From Candidatus Zambryskibacteria bacterium RIFCSPHIGHO2_01_FULL_46_25 (GTDB taxonomy: Bacteria; Patescibacteriota; Minisyncoccia; Phycocordibacterales; Zambryskibacteraceae), in contig MHVH01000005.1 of assembly GCA_001825155.1 (NCBI GenBank), positions 168,501 to 232,500 of the forward strand: a DNA stretch of 64,000 nucleotides, given 5' to 3'. The notes beneath the pieces are model-generated. The model had not been told where the DNA came from. It saw only the letters and a program-made list of their open reading frames with translations, and did no database searches. Shown here one piece after another: positions 1-22,088 of the stretch; position 1 is the stretch's first letter; every line of letters begins with the position of its first letter. The translations under genes and the position numbers were made by a program.

Positions 1-338
1 ATTAGTTTATATGTTTTTTTTATATATTCAGAAATATCACGAATTTCCGGAGAGTCTGAACCAGCGCAAGTTATTTTGAAAGTTTTAAACTCATCCTCGT
101 TACCTGCAATGACTGCCTCAATAAGACAGCCCAAAATAGACTTGTGATTTGAAATATAAAGTGGATTGTATTTGGTATCTTGTGACACAACATAGGCACG
201 AGCTACGCTCCTCAACTCCCTAACCTCATCCAAATTTGATACATAGTCTAAATAGATAGAATCTCCAACTTCTCTTCGTACGTGAAAAACTTTCTTTTTA
301 TTAATCTCATTTAGAACAATACTACGTAAACCCGTCAC
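1..338 (-). CDS. partial ORF (3' part; GTG start near 336-338; runs off the window start), hypothetical, possibly glycosyltransferase-related
   Basis: Open frame on the minus strand from the GTG at 336-338 to the window edge, with no stop; manual translation VTGLRSIVLNEINKKK...ITCAGSDSPEIRDIS. Confidence 0.3.
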   Translation of the reverse strand, partial: MTGLRSIVLNEINKKKVFHVRREVGDSIYLDYVSNLDEVRELRSVARAYVVSQDTKYNPLYISNHKSILGCLIEAVIAGNEDEFKTFKITCAGSDSPEIRDISEYIKKTYKL

Positions 339-348
339 GTAGGATAGT

Positions 349-2061
349 TTAATTTCTAGATTTAATTCTTTCATACCCATTCTTAATTTGATCAAAGGCA
401 TCAGAAACTCGTATTCTGTCCATGCAAAATTCTTCACAGCACGTAATCTCCTCTTGCCTTGAACTATGTTTGCACAATTTATGCCTATCTTTGTCATATA
501 ATGGTACCATGTATTCTGAAGTATGTAAATATTTAGGGTCAGTCGCACCGAATATAACAAATGAGCTCTTATTGAAGCTCTGGGCAATTACTGCTGGCCC
601 AGAGTCATTTCCGATAATAAATTTACAATGTTTAATAAGCGACATCATTTCGCTGAATGAGTAAGACTTCTCAAGTATTATGCATTTAACTTTAAACTCT
701 TTTTCAAGCAATTTTGCTAACTGAAGAAACTTATCGTAACCCCAATTTCTCTTTTTCTCCTCCCACCAACTGGTAGAAGGGGCAATGAGAATATACTCGT
801 CCTTAATAATTCTATTCCACTCATCATTCAAGGTTGGAATATCATTCATCTCAATGTCACCAAAACCAACTGATTCCATGTATCCTTGAATATATGTCTT
901 ATGGTTGTCACTTAACTCGTGTACCAGCCTGATGAAAGCATCACACTTTATCTGGTTCGAAATTAAGTCATTGTAATCGTATATATGGGTATAAGTGCCT
1001 AGTAGTTGCCCGGCGTCTGTAATCTTGGTTGCCAAGGAAATGGTATCGCTAAATTTTAATAGAAATTTAGCAACAGGCTCTGTCATTATCACATCACCCA
1101 GATGTCCACTCCTGACAAGGCAAATTGACTTAATCTGTCCCTTTTCAATCTTTCTCCTCAGATACTGACTGTGCCATTTGACCAATTTAGTATCGTAGAT
1201 AAATCTATCCTCTGGTATAAGAGTTCCCCAAAATGTTCTGTGTTCCGAAAACCATCTTTTTCTTATCTCGTCCACATTATTTTTAAATTCATCAACATAT
1301 TTTCTAATGGTTTCTATTCTCTCCATCCATGGTGCGTCCGAATCAGAGGTTGAGTCATTTTCGAATTCAGCAAGCTTCTTCCACTTTTTATATATTTCCT
1401 CCGGTTTTCCGCGAAATTCAAAATGTAAAAGCTTAGCCTCACTTGCGGGCACAATAAAAGGGTTCCAGTGATAATTACCAAAAAAATCTTTGTTGTTCTC
1501 AGTTCTTACATAATGGCCTCCCACCACGATTTCCATACGATCATGATTTTTAACAATAGCTTTTCTAAAATGACCGTATTCCTGCCATGGTTTTTCTGGC
1601 CACGGATAATAGTATTTTGTTGTATCTATTGGATTTACTGGTGAGCATGTAAAATCATTAAAAGTGTAATCAAATAAGGCGTTTGCCCACCCAATTGTTG
1701 CATAAGGAATTTTCTTGTCCTCTAGGCGATCTATAAAATCGTGTATATCTTTTTCTTTGATTGAAAAAAACTCGTCGACATCCAGAAATATAAACCAGTC
1801 TATCTCGTAGTTATCTTTTGCATACTTTAAGAGCTTATTAGCAATTCTTGCATGATCAAATACGGGATTCTCCTCATTGATGATTACTACCCGAGAATTA
1901 TTTTTATATTTGTCGAAAATCTCTTTGGTTCCATCTGTAGAGCAGTGATCAGCAATAAAAATGTAATCAAACCCGAGGTCTAGATGATAGGAAATATTTA
2001 AATCAGCATATAACTCCTCATTTCGTACCGACATCAGTATCGCAACACTGCTTCTTCTCAT
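349..2061 (-). CDS. two-domain glycosyltransferase: N-terminal GT2-like (nucleotide-diphospho-sugar transferase) plus C-terminal GT9/heptosyltransferase-like
   Basis: 570-aa ORF; N-terminus DHCSTDGTKEIFDKY...FLDVDEFF is GT2-like; C-terminus GHLGDVIMTEPV...GNDSGPAVIAQSF is heptosyltransferase-like. Confidence 0.6.
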   Translation of the reverse strand: MRRSSVAILMSVRNEELYADLNISYHLDLGFDYIFIADHCSTDGTKEIFDKYKNNSRVVIINEENPVFDHARIANKLLKYAKDNYEIDWFIFLDVDEFFSIKEKDIHDFIDRLEDKKIPYATIGWANALFDYTFNDFTCSPVNPIDTTKYYYPWPEKPWQEYGHFRKAIVKNHDRMEIVVGGHYVRTENNKDFFGNYHWNPFIVPASEAKLLHFEFRGKPEEIYKKWKKLAEFENDSTSDSDAPWMERIETIRKYVDEFKNNVDEIRKRWFSEHRTFWGTLIPEDRFIYDTKLVKWHSQYLRRKIEKGQIKSICLVRSGHLGDVIMTEPVAKFLLKFSDTISLATKITDAGQLLGTYTHIYDYNDLISNQIKCDAFIRLVHELSDNHKTYIQGYMESVGFGDIEMNDIPTLNDEWNRIIKDEYILIAPSTSWWEEKKRNWGYDKFLQLAKLLEKEFKVKCIILEKSYSFSEMMSLIKHCKFIIGNDSGPAVIAQSFNKSSFVIFGATDPKYLHTSEYMVPLYDKDRHKLCKHSSRQEEITCCEEFCMDRIRVSDAFDQIKNGYERIKSRN

Positions 2062-2100
2062 TGCCTAACTATATCATTTATGGTCGAATTTTAATACTGG

Positions 2101-2847
2101 CTACTTCAAAAGGTCATCGAGGTAATGTTTGAATTTATAAAATGCCGGATGATCAGGGTAGACAGCATGGAACATTGTAACTTCATCCAAATCTTCGATA
2201 TCAGCATTTTCGTTTGGACCAATTAACATATATTTTTCTTTCGGGAAAATATATAATTCGCCATTTATCGAATACCTAGTCAGAGCAATTGCTAGTGCTC
2301 CCTGCTCATCATGGTGGGTTTGATTATCTTTAGATATGTTCTTTTTCCACCAATTTAATTCTTCTGACAAATCTTGAGAAATGTTATAACCTGCTTTTTG
2401 TATAAAGAGACCAGCATTTACAAAGGGAGTTTGTTTGTCAGCTTTTTGCTGCATAGCCCCATACTGCCACAGCTGACCGAAAAACTCATCCATAATACCG
2501 AACTTTGATTTCGAGTCCTTGATGAAATCGTCAATTTCTTTTGGGTATCTCAATAAAAATACATCCGAGTCAATATAGACCTCCGTTTCATTTACATCTA
2601 TTCTCGGGCTTGGACACCACTTTTTCCATGTAGCAACAGAATCAATATCATACTCACTAACGATGTTGGTAAAATCTAGCACTTCAGCAATTCCGTTGAA
2701 TTTGTTCATCCAGTCACTTGGTGAATCTGTATAGATGACATATCTGTGTTTATTACCAAATTGCTTTTTGAAAGACAAAATACTATACCTAAGTAAATCT
2801 AGGTTTTTTTCTTTATATTGACCCCATATACTCCATCTAAATATCAT
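2101..2847 (-). CDS. hypothetical protein in glycosyltransferase cluster
   Basis: 248-aa ORF, same strand, tightly packed with neighbours. Confidence 0.35.
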   Translation of the reverse strand: MIFRWSIWGQYKEKNLDLLRYSILSFKKQFGNKHRYVIYTDSPSDWMNKFNGIAEVLDFTNIVSEYDIDSVATWKKWCPSPRIDVNETEVYIDSDVFLLRYPKEIDDFIKDSKSKFGIMDEFFGQLWQYGAMQQKADKQTPFVNAGLFIQKAGYNISQDLSEELNWWKKNISKDNQTHHDEQGALAIALTRYSINGELYIFPKEKYMLIGPNENADIEDLDEVTMFHAVYPDHPAFYKFKHYLDDLLK

Positions 2848-3590
2848 TTTATTTTAGGAAAATGTTTAGGTTTCCACTGCTTTCTTTTAGTATTATTATA
2901 TTTTGAATACATTTCGAATATCTTTCTTTGATCTGGTCTTTCAATAAGCCATTTATCAATATTGGTGTAATATCCATGAAAACCAAATTGATCTTTATAG
3001 TTATCATCGCCGCCCTCGAATGCAAATCTTCTTGCTAATTCTACATCAGCGAATTCTATTCCTCTTTTTATAAAAAGATCTCTGTACCATACACTGAACG
3101 CTATGTCTTCTGGATGAAAATATGGAATCTCACTTGATTTAAATAATTCTGCCGATACTTCTAAGAATTTCCTGCTCCTTATACAAAAACCTCCATTACC
3201 AACCACTCTTCTCCCTCTCCAGTTTTCAGGAAACCCAAAATCATTAATTGACCAATCTTTTACAACCCATGGTGCACCAATATAATCATAATTTAGAAAC
3301 TCATTGGTCCAACTATTTGGGTTTAAGATGAATCCATCCCATTGAACCAGTAAAACAAATTCTGTATCAACGTAGTCTTTTAAGTCACTTAAACAGAACT
3401 GCGAATATTGCTCATGAGAAGCAATCTCTTTTATTTTAATTAATCTATGATCTTCAACATCCTTTGAAGTAAGCAGCTTGGATTTTGCAAAAGTAATTTT
3501 TTCTTCGCACAAATTCATTACTTCCTGTAGCTTAGCTGGGTCGACACAATCAATCCCTAGCAAAGTAACTTTATCTAACTTTAATTTCAT
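2844..3590 (-). CDS. hypothetical protein in glycosyltransferase cluster
   Basis: 248-aa ORF overlapping the downstream gene by 4 nt (operon-like). Confidence 0.35.
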   Translation of the reverse strand: MKLKLDKVTLLGIDCVDPAKLQEVMNLCEEKITFAKSKLLTSKDVEDHRLIKIKEIASHEQYSQFCLSDLKDYVDTEFVLLVQWDGFILNPNSWTNEFLNYDYIGAPWVVKDWSINDFGFPENWRGRRVVGNGGFCIRSRKFLEVSAELFKSSEIPYFHPEDIAFSVWYRDLFIKRGIEFADVELARRFAFEGGDDNYKDQFGFHGYYTNIDKWLIERPDQRKIFEMYSKYNNTKRKQWKPKHFPKIK

Positions 3591-3610
3591 ATAATCGGAG
3601 TGCGTATAAT

Positions 3611-4891
3611 CTATTTGAGATTCTTCACAAGAAAATCCCTCATAATTACCGGAAAATCAAATCTGCCAATCGTGTTTGTGTTTTTATCAATAATTTCTCT
3701 CTTTGTGTTCTGATCCAATTTGGCTGTGGTGATTATTTTTTGTGAAAACAGTTCGATATCATTTGGATCAACGTATACAGACTCATCCTCACTAAATGCA
3801 TCAACTGCGCCATCAACCTCACTAATTATAGTTACAAAATTCATATCTCTTGAAAACAACTTGGCCTCAATTGAGGTGTGTGGGAATGGATCCATTATTG
3901 ATGGTATACATACAATATCTGTATTTTCATTTCTTAATACGGTTTTCCATATATCTGGATTGAAATCATCAATGATGATAGATCTAGGTGTATCTGAAAG
4001 AATGCTTCGGACTTCGGAGAAGTAATTCGATTCACCAGAATTATTTGGCATTTGTAAAATAAGATAGTGATTTGGCAACTGTTGAGCCGACATTTTCCAT
4101 GCCTGAGCAAGCTCTCTGAAACCTTTAGCGACCGAGCACCTTCCCCAAGAAAAAATAATCTTTGCATCTCGTTCGATATTTATATCAAATTTTTCTAAAT
4201 CAGAGTTTGTAAATTTCCTGCTAAGATAGTTGTCGTATCTACTAAAAAATAATCCATTTTGAAGAAAATCATCTTTTGAGAAAAATAATCCATAATCATT
4301 ATGCATTCTCTCAGCGAACTTTTTTCCTAAAGAAATGACCTTCGAGTCTTTATCTTTGAAGGCTAGGTCAAAACACTCTTGCTCAACCCTAATTCTATTT
4401 TCTCTCCAAACCTGATCTCCAAAAGCATGATTTTTGCCAGTACTTAATGGGAAATAAAAATACTTAACTTTTTTGCTGTTAACCAAATCTTTATATTTAG
4501 CAAAGAATAAAAAGGGAGTGTCATTTAAAATGATATAACTCTCCTCATCAGGGTTTAGAATAATATTTAGAGCAGTAACAAGGGAGGAGCATGTGTAATT
4601 CCATTCATTAAAACTTCTCCACATATCCCACTCACTTTCTCCTTTGGTCGAATTACATAGTGGCAACATGGCGCCTCCAGTTTCTGAAGTAAGTTTATTT
4701 GCCTTATCAAAACACTCTTTGTTAAACACTTTTGAACCCTGGTCTACATTGATATAAGCAATACTTACCTTCAAATCGAACTCATCAGCAAGTTCACCTA
4801 AAGCATCCACAAAATTTTTTGCAATTGTTCCAACTCCAGAATAATGCGTACCTATGCCGTCATATGTAGCTATAATTAGATGTTTCTTCAT
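3611..4891 (-). CDS. putative glycosyltransferase (GT1/GT4-like) / hypothetical
   Basis: 426-aa ORF; N-terminus IIATYDGIGTHYSGVGTIAKNF resembles the Rossmann-like start of GT-B enzymes. Confidence 0.4.
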   Translation of the reverse strand: MKKHLIIATYDGIGTHYSGVGTIAKNFVDALGELADEFDLKVSIAYINVDQGSKVFNKECFDKANKLTSETGGAMLPLCNSTKGESEWDMWRSFNEWNYTCSSLVTALNIILNPDEESYIILNDTPFLFFAKYKDLVNSKKVKYFYFPLSTGKNHAFGDQVWRENRIRVEQECFDLAFKDKDSKVISLGKKFAERMHNDYGLFFSKDDFLQNGLFFSRYDNYLSRKFTNSDLEKFDINIERDAKIIFSWGRCSVAKGFRELAQAWKMSAQQLPNHYLILQMPNNSGESNYFSEVRSILSDTPRSIIIDDFNPDIWKTVLRNENTDIVCIPSIMDPFPHTSIEAKLFSRDMNFVTIISEVDGAVDAFSEDESVYVDPNDIELFSQKIITTAKLDQNTKREIIDKNTNTIGRFDFPVIMRDFLVKNLK

Positions 4892-4959
4892 ATATTTCAG
4901 CTGGACTTAATTTCTAATAGAAGTGGCGAGTGATCTGATATCGGCTCATTAGTGATATT

Positions 4960-5330
4960 TAAAATACCACTCTTTTCAGAGTTTAGGAAGTACTGTGCCG
5001 ATGCTCTTCGGTCATCGTGTACAAGGTGGCTGGTTGGCAAGGTAGAGAAACTGTTCTCTTTTGCCCTAACGGCTCAGCAAGCTGAGCCGTTGGAAAACTA
5101 GACTTTCCGCTCATTCCATTCAAAAAAGTCTTATCACCGCCAACACTGAAAGTATGATAGCGGAAAGGCTGAGGAAGCGCTGTGCGCTTCCGAAGGGCCT
5201 TGAGCACCGAAGGTGCGAAAGGTGTACGGCGTCTGTAAGACGAGAGGCACGAGCACGCCCGCAGGGCGTGCGAGTTAGTTAGAATCAAGAATTTTTGATA
5301 AAGTAGGTTCGAGCAGACTCGTATAGAGCC
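4960..5330 (+). other. structured non-coding region of unknown family; ends in a tRNA-3'-like GGTTCGA...AGAGCCACCA
   Basis: About 370 nt without a credible ORF and dense in hairpins (GCACCttcgGTGC, GCACGCCCgcaGGGCGTGC, AACGGCTCAGCaagcTGAGCCGTT); its 3' end resembles the 3' half of tRNA-Leu; strand uncertain. Confidence 0.2.
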
Positions 5331-5422
5331 ACCATAGATGGGATAAAGCCCAATTCGGATAATTCGGATTTGGCTTGGCTGATGAAAACCCAAGGAATTT
5401 CGGGCACGGCGCGCGCTTCGCG
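5331..5422. repeat. left copy of a perfect 92-bp inverted repeat (partner 8581-8672); diverged similarity continues to about 5480
   Basis: Manual reverse-complement alignment gives 92/92 identity; begins with ACCA immediately after the tRNA-like 3' end. Confidence 0.9.
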
Positions 5423-5827
5423 CGAGTGGAGGTGTAGGTTCATAAAATTCAAAGCCAAAATATTTTCTGGAGGTTGATTTTAATACAAGGGTTCTGGGAG
5501 GTCGTACTTTTTAGTATGTGCTTGCCCCACCCGCCCGTGCGCGCACAAATTCTGCTCCCCTTAATGACATTCTCCATTTTACAACACTGATTATTCCTCC
5601 TGTCTTCTTGAAAAATCCTTATTTTATGATAGTTTATCGTCAGTGGCGATTCGTTCGCCACCAGAGTGCTCAACGGGAGAAGTTTGTTTACTCAAATTAC
5701 TCACAATGACGCACTCGCAACATTCAAGTAAGAAAGAAAGTTTTACTTTCCTTCCGAAAGGTGTTATCCTTAGTAGCGAGGCTGACCCAGCGTCGGCCTC
5801 GACTCCTAAGGGTACCGGTCCAAGTGG

Positions 5828-7084
5828 TTGTATGTTGGTTCGACTCCAACGGGATCGTCTATTGAAAAACATCTCAATTTACATTCAGTTTTCTCCTATT
5901 CAGAGTTTGGAAAAGCTTTTAACAAGCTAAAGAAAAAGAACAAATATAGGCAGACATCTGCAGATTTTAATTTAAAAGACCGATATTCCGACAAAAGAAT
6001 TCTAAACGCCCTAGGGAAATTCATACAGAAACATTCGAGCGATCAGGCAAGAGGATTGTATAGAGAAGTAGAAATCTACTCTCTTAGGCCATATAGGGGA
6101 ATTTCGATTTTAAAAAAGAGCGGGAAATATCGCCCACTTCTTGTTCCCTCTCCTTTGGATAGATTGGTATTTTTAACTGCGCTTCCAAGAATAAAAGGGT
6201 TGATTTATAAGAGACTTTTGAAATTTTCTGCTTTAGGGGTAGGCGTTAAGAGTGAGGAGGGATTAAAAATTACCATTGTATCTAATAAAATATTTGAAAA
6301 GGTTAAGCAGAAGAAAACGAGATATGTCCTTGCCTTAGATTTCCAGGACTTTTTCTCAACTATTCACAGAGATAAGCTGCACAGAAAACTTAAAACTATT
6401 TTTTCAAAAGCTGAAGAAAAAGAACTTTTGAAACTTTTAGTCTTGTCGATAAATAATCCTATAGAATCAGATGATCTTTTTAAAGCAAAATTTAAGAATC
6501 TTAATCTCGAGACAAGCGGAATTCCTCAAGGACTAGCGTACTCTCCATTACTAGCTAGTTTCTTTGCTACAAGTCTGGACGCCTTAGTGAGAAGAAACAA
6601 GTCAGTAATCTCGTACCGTTATTTAGATGATATGGTAATCATAGGGCCAAACAAAAGAAATCTTATAAAAATCTATAGAAAAATAAAAAGTTTTTCAGCT
6701 AAATTGGGTCTGAAGCTCCACGACCTTGGCGGAAAGACAAAAATATTACCAGTTATAAATCCCGATGATTCTTTCGATTTTCTCGGCATCTCTTTTTCTA
6801 AATCAGGTAAGCATATTACCAATCAAGCTATTAAGAAGTTTTTAGAAACCATAAAGACAGAAATCCTTACTGGGCGAGGATTAAGAACTTCTCCAGATAA
6901 TATCAAGAGGGTTTTTAAAGAATATGTCACTGGATGGAAACAATACTACTCGGCCATCTGCCCAGAGCACTATAAGGAAATAGCCCCAATTTTAGCAAAT
7001 GAAGTTCGTACTTATATGCTGAAAAAGAAAGCTTGGAAAAGGATATACCTAAGTGATGAAAATTTGTTTAACTTGAAGGAGTGA
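5828..7084 (+). CDS. reverse transcriptase (group II intron/retron-like prokaryotic RT; no intron RNA domains recognised)
   Basis: RT motifs RPLLVPSPLDRLV (RT2), LDFQDFFSTI (RT3), GIPQGLAYSPLLAS (RT4), YRYLDDMVII (RT5, YxDD), and thumb motif YVTGWKQYY; ORF opens with TTG, true start uncertain. Confidence 0.75.
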   Translation: MYVGSTPTGSSIEKHLNLHSVFSYSEFGKAFNKLKKKNKYRQTSADFNLKDRYSDKRILNALGKFIQKHSSDQARGLYREVEIYSLRPYRGISILKKSGKYRPLLVPSPLDRLVFLTALPRIKGLIYKRLLKFSALGVGVKSEEGLKITIVSNKIFEKVKQKKTRYVLALDFQDFFSTIHRDKLHRKLKTIFSKAEEKELLKLLVLSINNPIESDDLFKAKFKNLNLETSGIPQGLAYSPLLASFFATSLDALVRRNKSVISYRYLDDMVIIGPNKRNLIKIYRKIKSFSAKLGLKLHDLGGKTKILPVINPDDSFDFLGISFSKSGKHITNQAIKKFLETIKTEILTGRGLRTSPDNIKRVFKEYVTGWKQYYSAICPEHYKEIAPILANEVRTYMLKKKAWKRIYLSDENLFNLKE

Positions 7085-7191: not shown

Positions 7192-8721
7192 ATGAAATAC
7201 TTTTTATACGTTAGAAAATCCACCGATGTTGAAGACAAGCAAGTGCTTTCTATTGAAGCGCAGCTTTCGGAATTGAGAACTATTGCTAAACATGATGAGC
7301 TAGAAATCGTAGAGGAGTTTATAGAAAAGCGAAGTGCAAAAGTTCCAGGCAGATCAATTTTTGAAGAAATGCTCCGCCGGATTGAAAAGGACGAAGCCGA
7401 AGGAATTATTTGCTGGAAAGTAGATAGACTTTCCAGAAATCCTGTAGACAGCGGACGTATCAGTTGGATGCTTCAGCAAAACATCATTCAAAAAGTTATC
7501 ACACACGATAGAGTTTATCTCCCGCAAGACAATGTGCTTATTATGTCTGTAGAGTTCGGGATGGCTAATCAATACATCAGAGATTTGAGTGTAAATACCA
7601 AACGAGGTTTAAGAGCCAAAGCCAGACAAGGTATTTACCCCAGTGTTGCGCCCCTAGGATATTTAAATGATGTAAGGAGTAAGACGATAGTTATAGATAG
7701 GAAGAAAAGCCTTATAGTCCGTAAAGCATTTGAGATGTATGCGGAAAATAAATATAACCAAGAAGATATAGCCAACTTTCTTTTCAAGAATGGTATTCAA
7801 AGCAGATTAATAAGAAGACCAGACGCAACTGGCGGTAAGCCCTTGAAGAGAGACCAGATTAAGTGGATCTTAGAAAGCCCTTTTTATTATGGAAACTTCT
7901 ACTATGCTGGCGAAGTTTGGGAAGGAAAACACAAACCCTTAATTTCAAAAAAGCTCTGGGATAAAGTCCAAGAAGTTTTGAAATTAAGAGGAAGGGTAAA
8001 GAAAGTTAAGACAGAACCTAAAGCATTTTCCGGACTTCTTTATTGTGGAGAATGTGGCTGTTCTATTACTGCCGAAAGACAAAAGGGACATATTTATTAT
8101 CGTTGCACCAAAAAGAAAGGTAAATGCTCACAGCCCTTTACTAGAGAGGAAGTTTTAGACTCCCAACTTTCGGCAATACTAACTTCCTTAGTATTGCCGA
8201 GTGAATGGGCTAAAGAATTAAATAAGATGTTGGATAAAGACGAAGCGGACATCACTCAATCCGCGACGGCGTCCGTCCAAGCTCTGCGGTCAGATGCGAT
8301 GGAGATAAACTCCAAGCTTGCCCGCATTACAGACCTCTTTGTGGAACAAGACATTGAGCGTGGAGAATACCTGGATAGGAAGAAAGCTCTAATGTCTCAA
8401 AAGAAGTCTGTAGAGGAACAAATCCTCTTACTTGAACGAGACGCTGCTAGATGGCTCGAACCGATGCGAGAATGGCTAAAGGTGGCTTCTAGCCTAGCTG
8501 AAGCCGCGCAATCGAACGACCTCCCCTCCAGAAAATCATACCTCCAGAAAATCTTTGGCTCGAACCTCACACTCCACTCACGCGAAGCGCGCGCCGTGCC
8601 CGAAATTCCTTGGGTTTTCATCAGCCAAGCCAAATCCGAATTATCCGAATTGGGCTTTATCCCATCTATGGTGGGTCAGGTGGGAATCGAACCCACATCC
8701 GCAGAGCGGACAACATTTTAA
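7192..8721 (+). CDS. large serine recombinase (resolvase/invertase N-domain, recombinase domain, zinc ribbon); ORF reads through the inverted repeat into tRNA-Leu
   Basis: MKYFLYVRKSTDVEDKQVLSIEAQ with catalytic-Ser context; zinc ribbon CGECGCS...YYRCTKKKGKC; ORF track starts at TTG 7162, ATG at 7192 is preferred; last ~50 aa are encoded by the inverted repeat and tRNA. Confidence 0.8.
   Translation: MKYFLYVRKSTDVEDKQVLSIEAQLSELRTIAKHDELEIVEEFIEKRSAKVPGRSIFEEMLRRIEKDEAEGIICWKVDRLSRNPVDSGRISWMLQQNIIQKVITHDRVYLPQDNVLIMSVEFGMANQYIRDLSVNTKRGLRAKARQGIYPSVAPLGYLNDVRSKTIVIDRKKSLIVRKAFEMYAENKYNQEDIANFLFKNGIQSRLIRRPDATGGKPLKRDQIKWILESPFYYGNFYYAGEVWEGKHKPLISKKLWDKVQEVLKLRGRVKKVKTEPKAFSGLLYCGECGCSITAERQKGHIYYRCTKKKGKCSQPFTREEVLDSQLSAILTSLVLPSEWAKELNKMLDKDEADITQSATASVQALRSDAMEINSKLARITDLFVEQDIERGEYLDRKKALMSQKKSVEEQILLLERDAARWLEPMREWLKVASSLAEAAQSNDLPSRKSYLQKIFGSNLTLHSREARAVPEIPWVFISQAKSELSELGFIPSMVGQVGIEPTSAERTTF
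8581..8672. repeat. right copy of the perfect 92-bp inverted repeat (partner 5331-5422); extended similarity to about 8490
   Basis: Exact reverse complement of 5331-5422; lies within the recombinase 3' coding region and ends at the CCA of tRNA-Leu. Confidence 0.9.
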
Positions 8722-8754
8722 GTGTTGCGCGTATACCTATTCCGCCACTGACCC
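8669..8754 (-). tRNA. tRNA-Leu (anticodon TAA), CCA encoded
   Basis: Manual cloverleaf: acceptor GGGTCAG/CTGACCC, anticodon arm CAACA-CTTAAAA-TGTTG, long variable arm, T-arm GGGTTCGATTCCC. Confidence 0.85.
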
Positions 8755-8756
8755 AG

Positions 8757-8829
8757 AGGCGTAGAGGGGAATCGAACCCCTGCAATAACAGTTTTGCAGA
8801 CTGTCGCGTTACCACTTCGCCACTACGCC
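8757..8829 (-). tRNA. tRNA-Cys (anticodon GCA)
   Basis: Acceptor GGCGTAG/CTACGCC, anticodon loop CTGCAAA, T-arm GGGGTTCGATTCCCC. Confidence 0.8.
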
Positions 8830-8900
8830 AAAACCACTATTACCATACCATAAAATGTTGAAAAACGGTTCGATTAATGAGATACTATGCTTTGTTTGTT

Positions 8901-8973
8901 GCGCCCATAGCTCAGCTGGTAGAGCAGATCCCTCTTAAGGATAAGGTCCAAGGTTCGATCCCTTGTGGGCGCA
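8901..8973 (+). tRNA. tRNA-Lys (anticodon CTT)
   Basis: Acceptor GCGCCCA/TGGGCGC, D-arm GCTCAGCTGGTAGAGC, anticodon loop CTCTTAA, T-arm CAAGGTTCGATCCCTTG. Confidence 0.8.
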
Positions 8974-8977
8974 CAAT

Positions 8978-9059
8978 GCCGAGGTGGCGAAATTGGCAGA
9001 CGCGCCAGCTTTAGGAGCTGGTACCGCAAGGTGTGGAGGTTCAAGTCCTCTCCTCGGCA
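8978..9059 (+). tRNA. tRNA-Leu (anticodon TAG)
   Basis: Acceptor GCCGAGG/CCTCGGC, anticodon arm CCAGC-TTTAGGA-GCTGG, long variable arm, T-arm GGAGGTTCAAGTCCTCT. Confidence 0.85.
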
Positions 9060-9089
9060 CACTGCATTTATGAAGAAAGAAAAATAAAC

Positions 9090-11303: not shown

Positions 11304-11337
11304 CCATTATTTTCCAGCTATAGCGTAGAAATAATGG
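11304..11337. repeat. quasi-palindromic ~34-bp repeat, copy 1 (partner 11908-11941), just downstream of the PaaX-like gene
   Basis: CCATTATTTTCCAGCTATAGCGTAGAAATAATGG versus CCATTATTTTCTAGCTATAGCTTAATTATAATGG; direct repeats, each with palindromic ends CCATTAT/ATAATGG and core AGCTATAGC. Confidence 0.85.
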
Positions 11338-11344
11338 GGATGAC

Positions 11345-11911
11345 TTATATAAGGTCGAAATCCATTCTTAAATATTTATCATTCTCTATTTGATCAGCGA
11401 TGATGTAGAGCATATTCTTCCCTATCCCATAATTGGTCTTGAGGAGTCCGATGACATCTTCGCAATCATAAGGATAAACCCAGACGCTGTCCTGTAGTCT
11501 TAAAAAACCCGACGATTTGAGTATCTCCCTCACCTCGTCTCTCACTTTCTTCATCTTTTCCGGAATATCGAAAATTATGATCCTCCATTTTCTATCCCAT
11601 CTTTTTGGCTTAGGAATTCTATAATCATCCATTTCCCATTGGCGAAGAACCTTTTCTCCATCCGTTGTGAGAAAATATTTCCCACTTTTAAATTCCACCA
11701 ATCCTTTCCTTCTCAGGCGCGAAACCGCGGAGTATATAATATCTTTCTTTCTAGAAGATATTGGAATATCCAGATCAAGAAAATAATTCAGAACACTCGG
11801 CAAAAGGTCCGAGGAGCCCCTTCTGCCTCCAGAAGCTATCGAGACAAGAATCGCCTCCTGAACTTTCGATTTATTTATGGACTTCCTGGCTTTTCTTTCT
11901 AGCTCTCCCAT
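11345..11911 (-). CDS. PaaX-family regulator-like protein (N-terminal wHTH plus C-terminal Cas2-like/PaaX_C domain), paralog 1
   Basis: WRIIIFDIPEKMKKVRDEVREILKSSGFLRLQDSVWVYP matches the PaaX C-domain / Cas2-like pattern; 60-70% identical in the C-terminal half to ORF 22404-22976. Confidence 0.7.
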   Translation of the reverse strand: MGELERKARKSINKSKVQEAILVSIASGGRRGSSDLLPSVLNYFLDLDIPISSRKKDIIYSAVSRLRRKGLVEFKSGKYFLTTDGEKVLRQWEMDDYRIPKPKRWDRKWRIIIFDIPEKMKKVRDEVREILKSSGFLRLQDSVWVYPYDCEDVIGLLKTNYGIGKNMLYIIADQIENDKYLRMDFDLI

Positions 11912-11941
11912 TATTTTCTAGCTATAGCTTAATTATAATGG
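11908..11941. repeat. quasi-palindromic repeat, copy 2, overlapping the start codon and promoter region of the PaaX-like gene
   Basis: See 11304-11337. Confidence 0.85.
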
Positions 11942-20366: not shown

Positions 20367-22088
20367 ATGAGTAAAATTGAGGAAAAAAGGCATTCTCTCG
20401 CCCATCTTCTGGCGGCGGCGGTTTTGGAACTATACCCCGGGACCAAGAACACTATTGGCCCGTCTATAGACAACGGCTTCTATTACGATTTCGAATTCCC
20501 CTCTCCTATAAGTGACACAAACCTCAAGGAAATTGAGAAGAAGATGAAGAAACTTTCGAATTCCTGGAAGAGTTTTGAGAAAAAGGATGTTTCCGCAGAG
20601 GAAGCTCGAGAACATTTCAAAGATAATCCATACAAGCTCGAACTAATCGGGGAAATTATTTCTAAGGGAGAACCTCTGACTCTATACACTTCAGGCAGCT
20701 TCACCGATCTTTGTCGTGGCGGGCACGTCGAAGATATGCGGGAAGTGGACAACGACGCTTGGAAGCTTTCCCACATTGCCGGTGCCTACTGGCGCGGCAA
20801 TGAGAAGAACAAAATGCTCACCCGCATTTATGGCTTGGCTTTCGATACGAAAGAAGAATTGGATACGTATGAGAAAATGATTGAAGAAGCCAAAAGGAGA
20901 GATCATAGAAAACTGGGGGCGGAACTCAACCTGTTTTCAGTAGATGACCGTCTAGGTCAAGGTCTTATATTATGGCACCCGAAGGGCGGCATCATCCGTA
21001 AAGAAATCGAGGATTATGAGAGAGAGCTTGTCTTGAAACATGGATATGATTTAGTCTATACACCACACATTGCTAGCGAGAAACTCTTCATTGAATCTGG
21101 ACATTTGGAAAATTACATCGACAGCATGTACGGCTCAATAGAGATTGAAGGGGAAAAATATCGACTCAAGCCAATGAATTGCCCTGGGCATATTTGCATT
21201 TACCAGGCACGGGTGCATTCCTATCGTGATTTGCCATTGCGCTTCGCTGAATTCGGTACGGTTTACCGCTATGAACTAAGCGGTACGCTCCAAGGCCTCT
21301 TGCGTGTACGCGGATTTACACAAGATGATGCTCACATCTTCTGCACACCGGAACAAGTAGAAAATGAGGTTAAGGAACTGCTCTCTTTGGTTGACGAAAT
21401 GCTCAAGACTTTTCGCTACCCTTACTCTATCGAGCTTTCAACAAAGCCTGAAAAGGCCATGGGTTCAAAAGAAACCTGGGACAAAGCGGAACAGTTACTC
21501 AAATCAGTTTTGGAAAAGGAGGGCAAGGAATACACCGTCGACGCTGGAGGAGGTGCTTTCTACGGGCCAAAATTGGACTTCAAGCTCATTGATTCTCTCG
21601 GACGAAAATGGCAGGGTCCAACTGTCCAACTTGATTTCAACTTGCCGGAAAGATTTAAGATGGAATATATCGGATCGGATGGAAAAGCTCATAGGCCAGT
21701 AATGCTACACCGAGTATTAGTAGGCTCAATGGAGCGATTCTTCGGTGGTCTTATCGAGCACTACGCCGGTGCATTCCCTCTCTGGCTCTCCCCGGTACAG
21801 GTTAAGGTTTTACCTATCGGCGAGGGACACTTCGCTTACGCGACAGAAGTTCTGGACAAGATGAAAACCGCTGGCATTCGCGCCGAACTCGACGTCTCCG
21901 ACGAAACTCTGGGCAAGAAGATTCGCAACGTGAAGACCGAAAAAATTCCTTACGCTCTGGTCATCGGCGACAAAGAGGTGGCGGACAAAAAAGTGACTGT
22001 CGAGAGCCGCGACCGAGACAATGAAGGAGTACAAGAAGTCGAAACGCTGATTGAAAAGTTGAAAACAGAAATCAAAGAGAAAAAATAA
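20367..22088 (+). CDS. thrS: threonine--tRNA ligase
   Basis: Class II core (HRKLGAELNLF, FRYELSGTLQGLLRVRGFTQDDAHIF), anticodon-binding C-terminus. Confidence 0.9.
   Translation: MSKIEEKRHSLAHLLAAAVLELYPGTKNTIGPSIDNGFYYDFEFPSPISDTNLKEIEKKMKKLSNSWKSFEKKDVSAEEAREHFKDNPYKLELIGEIISKGEPLTLYTSGSFTDLCRGGHVEDMREVDNDAWKLSHIAGAYWRGNEKNKMLTRIYGLAFDTKEELDTYEKMIEEAKRRDHRKLGAELNLFSVDDRLGQGLILWHPKGGIIRKEIEDYERELVLKHGYDLVYTPHIASEKLFIESGHLENYIDSMYGSIEIEGEKYRLKPMNCPGHICIYQARVHSYRDLPLRFAEFGTVYRYELSGTLQGLLRVRGFTQDDAHIFCTPEQVENEVKELLSLVDEMLKTFRYPYSIELSTKPEKAMGSKETWDKAEQLLKSVLEKEGKEYTVDAGGGAFYGPKLDFKLIDSLGRKWQGPTVQLDFNLPERFKMEYIGSDGKAHRPVMLHRVLVGSMERFFGGLIEHYAGAFPLWLSPVQVKVLPIGEGHFAYATEVLDKMKTAGIRAELDVSDETLGKKIRNVKTEKIPYALVIGDKEVADKKVTVESRDRDNEGVQEVETLIEKLKTEIKEKK

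Follow-up and report, generated by a model that had tools for sequence, protein, structure and literature searches.

A hairpin-rich stretch that probably flanks an inverted attP-like site of a large serine recombinase within a tRNA-Leu island of a Zambryskibacteria genome

The attachment (att) sites of large serine recombinases (LSR) of the Bxb1, phiC31 and A118 type lie beside the gene of a protein with resolvase, recombinase and zinc-ribbon domains, consist of a short core between two half-sites, and leave clean hybrid junctions at both ends of the integrated element. In the half-sites of serine integrases, the recognition motif is further from the core in attP (P-type) than in attB (B-type). 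These properties were also found around the hairpin-rich stretch at 4960-5335 of a 64-kb window from Candidatus Zambryskibacteria (the window is the whole stretch of DNA analysed, 64,000 nucleotides (nt), and all coordinates refer to it unless another locus is named; L-numbers denote the related contigs or loci compared, and P-numbers the homologous recombinase proteins). The stretch is best explained as mobile-element DNA and not as a stand-alone RNA gene. From the sequence comparisons given below, it probably flanks, on the P' side, an inverted attP-like copy inside an island at tRNA-Leu(UAA) and forms the pivot of two invertible segments. An att-site remnant had been among the readings proposed in the earlier note on this DNA; that reading held and was sharpened, the last ~50 nt of the stretch matching the P' half of an attP-type site. 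Integration by LSR needs only short sites (~40-50 bp), according to PMC12286644. Unlike at textbook LSR sites, the crossover here would lie inside the 3' coding end of the recombinase, so that integration swaps the C-terminus of the protein; a tRNA 3' end serves as the target, and the island retains an extra inverted attP-like copy with arms of 150-230 nt and a conserved hairpin-rich flank.

The invertible segments of Hin, Gin and Cin and the shufflons resemble this locus in having inverted repeats around a segment that contains or adjoins a recombinase gene, an inverted alternative 3' coding end, and both orientations of one segment in populations (here apparent from assemblies, some of which may reflect choices of the assembler). 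They differ from it in the length of the arms (~26-34 bp versus 116-230 nt here), in that the repeats here are derived from att sites, and in that the enzyme here is an integrase-type LSR and not a small invertase, with a putative role in inversion. In mycobacteriophages BPs and Brujita, attP lies in a coding sequence, and the integrated and free forms differ in their C-terminus. Unlike that system, which works with a tyrosine integrase and in which integration affects the repressor and also the degradation tag of the integrase, the protein with the alternative end here would be the serine recombinase itself. Tycheposons, as far as part of the work of Hackl et al. (bioRxiv 10.1101/2020.12.28.424599) describes them, and tyrosine-integrase islands share with the present island the cargo at a tRNA 3' end, the restoration of that end (here CCA), an element site that imitates the tRNA, and defence and surface-glycan cargo. 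They are unlike it in that an LSR specific to bacteria of the candidate phyla radiation (CPR) is present here, with an open reading frame (ORF) that runs into the tRNA, and in that inverted site copies would make parts of this island invertible.

In the proposed arrangement, an ~18-kb island of low G+C content, with glycosyltransferase (GT) genes, a reverse transcriptase (RT) and its non-coding RNA (ncRNA), and the LSR, would have been integrated by the LSR into the 3' end of tRNA-Leu(UAA). The free or 'native' recombinase gene would end in ...LYxxARTYFxxx and a stop, its last codons doubling as a P' half-site that imitates a tRNA T-arm, and integration would join the gene to the tRNA and let the ORF read into it. 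The stretch would be the outer half of an extra, internal and inverted native junction (Site A), and a ~150-nt remnant of the recombinase gene the inner half. On the plus strand, the flank F (hairpins H0-H8) would be followed by the P' half-site with the native tail codons, the core CCAC and the ~150-nt remnant. Because the remnant is in common with the recombinase gene (inverted repeat IR1) and the last 216-230 nt of the stretch with attR (inverted repeat IR2), Site A would pivot two segments that adjoin each other, namely the RT-recombinase module of 3.1 kb and the GT island of 14 kb. The features on which this arrangement is built are as follows.

4960-5102: F5', the unique inner part of the flank, joined to the GT island in both orientations; its fold contains H0 (about 4994-5023, with a cUUCGg-type loop), H1 (about 5036-5066) and H2 (5066-5093)
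5103-5332: U, comprising H3-H8 and the core, one arm of IR2; the partner is outside the window at attR, ~14 kb away
5253-5271: H7, an 8-bp, GC-rich hairpin that, read on the minus strand, comes immediately after the stop codon of the native recombinase
5282-5332, minus strand: native recombinase C-terminal codons and stop, from the match of the tail to L003 and other family members
5297-5325: P' half-site with the T-arm mimic CGAACCTAC, within the native tail codons
5327-5332: recombination core CCAC within CCACCA, common to three sites
5326-5477, minus strand: left arm of IR1, a remnant of the recombinase 3' end, from self-alignment to 8562-8677
5478-5624: u, a spacer, from alignment with L073 and a self-match in L074
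7192-8721, plus strand: LSR, with Resolvase, Recombinase and Zn_ribbon_recom domains
8562-8677, plus strand: right arm of IR1, the true recombinase 3' end joined to tRNA-Leu (attL)
8669-8754, minus strand: tRNA-Leu(UAA), the integration target, from ARAGORN and Rfam

The core CCAC was common to three sites, of which the third is outside the window. With the crossover marked by a slash, Site A reads ...TATAGAGCCAC / CATAGATGGG, attL at tRNA-Leu (Site B) reads ...CCTGACCCAC / CATAGATGGG, and attR in L074 (Site C) reads ...TATAGAGCCAC / ATTTGATTAAATTGC (given also as ...TATAGAGCCAC / ATTTGATTAA). The combinations were P'-O-P (about 5300-5360), tRNA-O-P (8669-8690) and P'-O-B' (L074, about 21244), which is the pattern expected from an attL/attR pair plus a copy of attP. 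The same three-site pattern was found in L073 at a different tRNA, with the core GGCACCA. A common core with reciprocal hybrid junctions was accompanied by adjacency to the cognate LSR (in L003, and through the remnant in the window) and by an offset of the recognition motif, as in attP-type sites. The attB site would have read ...GACCCAC / ATTTGATT, with the ~18-kb element integrated there. Among the four clustered tRNAs (8669-9060), only tRNA-Leu(taa) has an encoded CCA; because this CCA lies in the repeat, it would have been supplied by the element, and the original tRNA-Leu probably had no encoded CCA, like its neighbours. Beyond attR in L074 there are a small zinc-ribbon ORF, tRNA-Gly and a TPR gene.

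Both candidate segments were bounded by inverted repeats. The arms of IR1 (5326-5441 and 8562-8677) are 116 nt long and 95% identical (103 nt at 99%), with a weaker extension to 5477 and 8525. The stretch ends in ...GTATAGAGCCACCA at 5333 and IR1 starts at that CCACCA; the partner arm meets tRNA-Leu(taa) (8669-8754, minus strand) at its 3' end in the same way, as had been noticed earlier. In IR2, 5117-5332 matched L074 21029-21244 in inverted orientation (216 nt, 99.5%). This partner is ~9 kb beyond the left end of the window, on contigs reached via the window glycosyltransferase, and beyond a 34-nt hairpin inserted in the far copy (Site C) the two arms align again over 5103-5117. The GT/methyltransferase island between these 216-nt repeats is 14 kb long with 35% G+C (window 1-5116 plus ~9 kb to the left; L074 6946-21028).

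Two kinds of recombinase C-terminus were encoded at the locus. The integrated LSR ORF reads through IR1 into antisense tRNA-Leu and ends in ...SMVGQVGIEPTSAERTTF and a stop, and the minus strand at 5282-5332 encodes the native C-terminus ...SMVALYESARTYFIKNS and a stop (written also as ...ALYESARTYFIKNS and ...MVALYESARTYFIKNS). In L003, with an RT 68% and a recombinase 59% identical to those of the window, the homologue of 5063-5325 is on the opposite strand, directly after and overlapping the recombinase end ...ATLYYQIRTYFRLLN and its stop. The recombinase family is very large in CPR bacteria (>4,500 database matches). Antisense translation of a tRNA T-arm (GIEPT, GFEPS and similar) formed the end of 91 of the 120 nearest cluster representatives (P0035-P0154), and the native tail LY..ARTYF... 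and stop, present also in the L003 recombinase, that of 9; L073 and L089 both kept the native tail unbroken and in frame. Because the ORFs mostly run into antisense tRNA genes, the annotated C-termini of the family would be artefacts of integration, and the attP crossover of the family appears to lie within its own 3' coding end.

The tRNA-like look of the 3' end of the stretch is explained by this coding function and by mimicry in the half-site. The GGTTCGA that had been read as tRNA-like is the reverse complement of the A-R-T-Y codons, and the same letters appear to be the imitation by the element of a tRNA T-arm. TCGAACC was 16 nt from the core in P' versus 12 nt in the tRNA half-site, and the same 4-nt offset was found in L073 at its different tRNA; TCGAACC may be the recognition motif of the zinc-ribbon domain. 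The P' half-site was identical at 18/18 positions between the window and L073, and the adjacent arm at only ~65-70%.

The remnant (5326-5477) together with 5282-5325 formed an open 57-codon frame. It was orthologous in L073 and L089 (LALNFMNLHLHSREAR...), of equal length and stop-free in all three loci, and had an excess of synonymous changes (pN/pS 0.29-0.5, three loci). The remnant and the true recombinase C-termini were mosaics of each other, which suggests exchange between the arms over time.

Both orientations of the GT island relative to its flanks were present among independent assemblies from genomes that are nearly identical. The start of the island, with 4892-5330 attached, was joined to the RT side in L082 (and 8 similar contigs), L083 (and 2) and L088, and to the TPR/attR side in L081 (and 1 similar contig), L084 and L085. 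The two kinds of junction differed by 0-2 mismatches across 4892-5330, and each was found in at least three assemblies; L074 and L075 were 100% identical over 14 kb. The breaks of many assemblies fell within the repeat at a distance of exactly one k-mer from its edge, at 5192 (megahit, k=141) and 5234 (another assembler, k≈100), as expected from a repeat boundary at 5332. Inversion would have occurred by recombination within the repeat arms, homologous recombination being the simplest agent and the recombinase acting at the core a possible one. In contig L067 the true recombinase 3' end is followed by GCTCTA (P') rather than by the tRNA; these 6 nt would be evidence for a recombinase-O-P' junction, from a circle or a flipped module, in that sample. 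Among other contigs, L065 begins with a 94-nt tandem duplication of 5238-5331 (L065 1-188), L070 begins with Illumina adapter sequence (1-17), L068 and L069 switch to a diverged allele inside the recombinase 3' end, and the GenBank record L063 has a frameshifted recombinase of 438 aa.

The architecture was found in three genomes. The order minus-strand cargo, F, core, remnant, u, variable module, recombinase and tRNA recurred in two further loci, neither of which has an RT. In L073 the recombinase is 88% identical and the cargo is a type I restriction-modification system; in L089 the recombinase is 85% identical, the tRNA and RNase R neighbourhood is the same (RNase R DNA 72.5% identical), and the variable module is HNH and Panacea. 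Since F is present in these two loci without RT, it belongs to the recombinase backbone and not to the RT. The inner end of the IR1 arm and the first part of u (5411-5566) were ~97% identical to L073, far above neighbouring sequence. A GC palindrome (5408-5425; CGCGCGCTTCGCGCG) is found at the start of this near-identical block and a promoter-like TTCTGG-N17-TAGTAT (about 5489-5517, plus strand) within it; the ncRNA-RT-recombinase operon may be regulated from this block.

These comparisons also bear on the reading of the stretch as a functionless relic of rearranged tandem or related recombinase elements, with hairpins that are neutral GC-rich palindromes and inverted repeats that merely allow occasional homologous recombination or confuse assemblers. 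A messy history is implied by duplications beyond the reach of conservative recombination, and ongoing decay by truncated R copies (R is described below) and an IS110-family transposase whose insertion in L089 (6395-7351) separates the attP-like site from the conserved u block; assemblies also break at the repeats. However, the same layout was kept in three diverged genomes (recombinases 85-88%, RNase R DNA of L089 72.5%), the H3 interior, the P' half-site and the 97% block were conserved far above neighbouring coding DNA, compensatory changes preserved H2 and H7, and the remnant had neither stops nor frameshifts. A mere relic is very improbable on this balance.

The dense, stable hairpins of the stretch described in the earlier note were real: the plus strand of 4960-5335 reached a minimum free energy of -146.1 kcal/mol (z = -5.9) and the minus strand one of -132.6 kcal/mol (z = -7.1), and on neither strand was any of 100 shuffles as good. 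In the alignment of homologous loci for covariation, proposed in the same note, H2, H3 and H7 were kept across four elements with different cargo (the window, L073, L089 and L003), and there were two compensatory pairs, from four sequences only. In H2 the pair 5077/5082 changed from G-C to A-T. In H7, which is at the same place in L003, L073 and L089, the pair 5255/5269 read A-T in two elements (the window, L003) and G-C in the other two (L073, L089). The outer stem of H3 is formed by 5103-5110 and 5160-5167, and its interior was nearly invariant in the four elements. H0 and H1 were absent from the relatives and H4-H6 from L003, and 34-nt hairpins were inserted in Site C and in L089. Blocks of F were 80-90% identical to L003, and F is non-coding, because a 1-nt indel in L003 breaks every frame. 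The hairpin body always follows the stop of the native recombinase and precedes the first cargo gene, in that orientation; from this position, H2, H3 and H7 may act at the RNA level on the minus (recombinase-sense) strand, as a 3' untranslated region, terminator or insulator towards the variable cargo operon. Assignment of a strand from folding energy or from counts of G.U pairs was discarded, being confounded by composition.

An independent plus-strand ncRNA, alone or as the 3' part of R (as R-U at attR), transcribed towards the core and either regulating the recombinase 3' end in antisense or serving the RT as a second RNA partner, would account for the strong folding z-scores, the 13.5 kcal/mol advantage of the plus strand and its RNA-type loops (cUUCGg, GAAA). 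A copy of U directly after R in the same orientation at attR agrees with it, as do the identity of the F blocks to L003 (80-90%, versus 59% for the recombinases) and the almost invariant, non-coding H3 interior. Against this, F occurs in the RT-less L073 and L089 and most RT loci lack it, hence no RT partner; R is not beside F in L003, L073 or L089; and no promoter was conserved, the sole promoter-like match (5131-5158) not being kept in L003. Shuffled controls also favoured the G-rich plus strand, which makes the energy difference one of composition, and a C.A in H2 of L089 on the plus strand would be G.U on the minus strand. Such an RNA is improbable.

Several observations weigh against the arrangement with Site A as attP-like copy and pivot. 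Conservative site-specific recombination cannot create duplications such as the internal copy. Among assemblies with a complete gene call, none had a flipped RT-recombinase module; all five members (5/5) of the 90% cluster of the recombinase had the tRNA read-through end or were frameshifted, and the 6 nt at the end of L067 are the sole hint of a flipped module. Some of the contigs with both orientations could be choices of the assembler, because the inverted repeat is longer than the k-mer, and the far copy in L074 is tied to the end of the island only across a scaffold gap (Ns at 20765-20782). The IR1 arms of L073 were only 81% alike, which disfavours frequent exchange there. The native-type member L071 had no F-like region after its stop codon, and the proposition that F follows every native-type recombinase was rejected on that account. 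The structural support for F consists of the four sequences and two compensatory pairs given above, and the strand signals conflict, the C.A on plus and G.U on minus in H2 of L089 standing against G.U pairs on plus at a helix end. Scans of 4800-5950 returned no terminators, U-tract terminators included, and 3 promoter-like sites versus 1.4 expected, and were uninformative. No reaction of attP with attL or attR is known for serine integrases, and inversion driven by the recombinase would be unorthodox here.

A further reading is a programmed double inversion switch, in which the recombinase, by itself or with a partner, would flip the RT-recombinase module, the GT island or both among the three core sites. 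Flipping would toggle the recombinase C-terminus between native and tRNA-fused forms and place R-U directly upstream of the ncRNA-RT-recombinase operon, and the stretch would be a working recombination site and an alternative recombinase 3' end. The architecture kept in three genomes despite complete turnover of cargo favours such a switch, as do the 18/18 conserved P' half-site next to a ~65-70% arm, the native tail and remnant in frame with an excess of synonymous changes, the mutually mosaic remnant and true C-termini, and both orientations of the GT island. L003 carries the other state of the recombinase end, and in L007 a different RT cassette is within a 218-nt inverted repeat beside a recombinase of the same family. 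But attP x attL/attR reactions without a directionality factor are not known for serine integrases, no flipped RT-recombinase contig was found, the remnant half-site by the core of L073 was degenerate and its arms 81% identical, and inversion of the GT island changes no obvious promoter-gene link except downstream of R. A switch of this kind was considered unlikely, with some points in its favour, and the attP-like copy as a flank and pivot, with no commitment to the agent of inversion, was retained as the probable reading.

The classes of RNA and of repeat that the stretch could have represented were examined in turn. No credible ORF was present, and a six-frame pseudo-protein of 4940-5340 had no match at E<=10 among 5.8 billion proteins; a 136-aa ORF (4983-5393, minus strand), which had been dismissed earlier as an artefact, had no relatives and crosses the repeat in a frame other than that of the recombinase. 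Both of these early judgements were correct. The Rfam search that the earlier note had suggested gave, at gathering score over the whole window, tRNAs as the only real matches and none for the hairpin stretch, and at E<=10 on 4700-6100, L074 20450-21330 and L007 5050-6050, tRNAs and chance-level matches only. Its candidates of tmRNA, RNase P RNA, 6S RNA and group II intron were dropped. For tmRNA, there was no ARAGORN call in the window and no Rfam match at E<=10 (4700-6100), and a GTAGG/AGACT T-stem was impossible; for RNase P RNA and 6S RNA there was no Rfam match at E<=10. No Intron_gpII or group-II-D1D4 match was obtained at E<=10, and the GIIM match of the RT was below threshold (20.4 bits versus a cut-off of 23). 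A group II intron is further disfavoured because the stretch is separated from the RT by the inverted repeat and travels without RT in L073 and L089. A tRNA or tRNA 3' fragment was rejected: of the supposed likeness to the 3' half of tRNA-Leu, GT.GGTTCGA and CCACCA stood, and the T-stem was unformable and no Rfam tRNA match was found at E<=10. The stretch had no other copies within the 64-kb window, as a REP or MITE (repetitive or miniature transposable element) would have, and near the RT there were no template/variable repeats in the style of diversity-generating retroelements and no other direct repeats of note. Exact-pattern scans of viral contigs with the conserved F and R motifs gave 0 matches, and blastn against phage and plasmid collections gave none.

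Left of the hairpin stretch is a GT operon on the minus strand, the last gene of which is at 3611-4891. Between this gene and the RT ORF there are ~0.95 kb without a credible ORF, a gap (given also as 0.9 kb) pieced together from at least five different elements. G+C was ~35% everywhere left of about 8100 and ~49% in the remaining window; in the hairpin stretch it was 44-51%, versus ~35% in the flanking genes. Directly after the LSR are tRNA-Leu(taa) and tRNA-Cys (both on the minus strand and one base apart), followed by tRNA-Lys, tRNA-Leu(tag) and RNase R. The RT and its ncRNA occupy the remaining part of the locus.

5625-5860, plus strand: N, the RT-associated ncRNA, from conservation and covariation
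5828/5861-7084, plus strand: RT, with matches to Pfam RVT_1 (2.9e-23) and GIIM (5e-4)

The RT protein was identical to one from 'Parcubacteria group bacterium GW2011_GWB1_49_7', and its family is small (about 22 cluster representatives, mostly from CPR bacteria). The ncRNA is directly upstream of the annotated RT start and overlaps it, was 91% identical to L003, and matched no Rfam family. It was recognisable across the RT family (L002 2880-3120, L003 120-356, and upstream of the RT in L004-L012 and L020-L030). Its 3' domain contains a stem (5767-5812) and a tRNA-like minihelix with 6+6-bp acceptor and T-arm (5816-5857), at the position of which ARAGORN called a tRNA in L012, L028 and L029. 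This domain was 94.7% paired in 11 sequences and 18/29 pairs changed on both sides; 0/500 shuffles matched it, and slid controls were 33-53% paired. What is annotated as a conserved RT N-terminus, 'MYVGSTPTGSS', is probably the ncRNA read as protein. F as part of this ncRNA, which had been one of the earlier suggestions, was rejected: the RT ncRNA is at about 5625-5860, and F is absent from most RT loci and rides the recombinase backbone, including that of the RT-less L073 and L089.

DRT10 is a three-part module of RT, SLATT effector and ncRNA, in which SLATT is required (bioRxiv 10.64898/2026.04.29.721553; PMC12632851). The RT at this locus resembles UG17/DRT10 in its best profile match within the defence library (PADLOC RT_UG17, 1.7e-30, covering the RT core only) and in the structured ncRNA beside it, and differs in that its ncRNA ends in a tRNA-like minihelix and no SLATT gene is beside it, either in the window or in 20+ related loci. 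Membership in UG17/DRT10 was rejected for lack of the SLATT partner. In related loci the RT had defence-island and surface-glycan contexts and no constant protein partner: in L077/L078 the RT (3215-4432) is beside an SduA_C (Shedu-type nuclease) gene (4466-5767), in L079 (8001-9233) it is inside a polysaccharide/glycosyltransferase cluster, and in L002 a HinfI endonuclease (4363-5154) is beside it. In the Saccharibacteria locus L007, a cassette of C5-methylase, HinP1I-type endonuclease, ncRNA, RT and R is enclosed by a 218-nt, 98% inverted repeat (1265-1482 and 5632-5849), with the same-family recombinase just outside.

R is a GC-rich, structured-RNA-like region of ~400-500 nt (L074 20548-20960 and L007 5085-5600), common to Parcubacteria and Saccharibacteria loci, both with this RT family. 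Its long-range complementary blocks covaried (GCCUCGGGCUG/CAGCCCGAGGC versus GCCUCGGAC/GUCCGAGGC). It had no match in Rfam or in viral, phage and plasmid collections. Beside the recombinase remnant, at 5507-5555 (minus strand), the first 50 nt of R are duplicated (L074 6507-6555 versus 20548-20597).

Elsewhere in the window, two 35-nt self-complementary copies (CCCATTATTTTC.AGCTATAGC...ATAATGG; 11304-11338 and 11907-11941) flank a gene for a 188-aa protein with a PaaX_M domain (11345-11911).

For annotation, the locus indicates that a hairpin-dense stretch with a tRNA-like end can mimic a new RNA, and here would combine the half-site of a recombinase with coding sequence on the wrong strand. 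The RT family with its tRNA-like minihelix ncRNA, and R in Parcubacteria and Saccharibacteria, are possibly the more novel leads. That the three core sites form a recombinase-operated double inversion switch maintained at a Parcubacteria tRNA locus is doubtful. If it were true, flipping the 3.1-kb module would restore the native recombinase C-terminus, flipping the 14-kb island would set R (~400 nt) and the hairpin module directly upstream of the tRNA-like ncRNA, RT and recombinase, and an RT-based module (possibly of defence), a surface-glycan island and integrase activity would all be phase-variable via one attP-derived pivot. The recombinase family of CPR bacteria (>4,500 matches) would have its attachment point in its own 3' end, and its C-termini are probably mis-annotated. 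An internal inverted attP copy would render cargo segments invertible, which bears on how surface glycans and defence genes may vary in minimal genomes.

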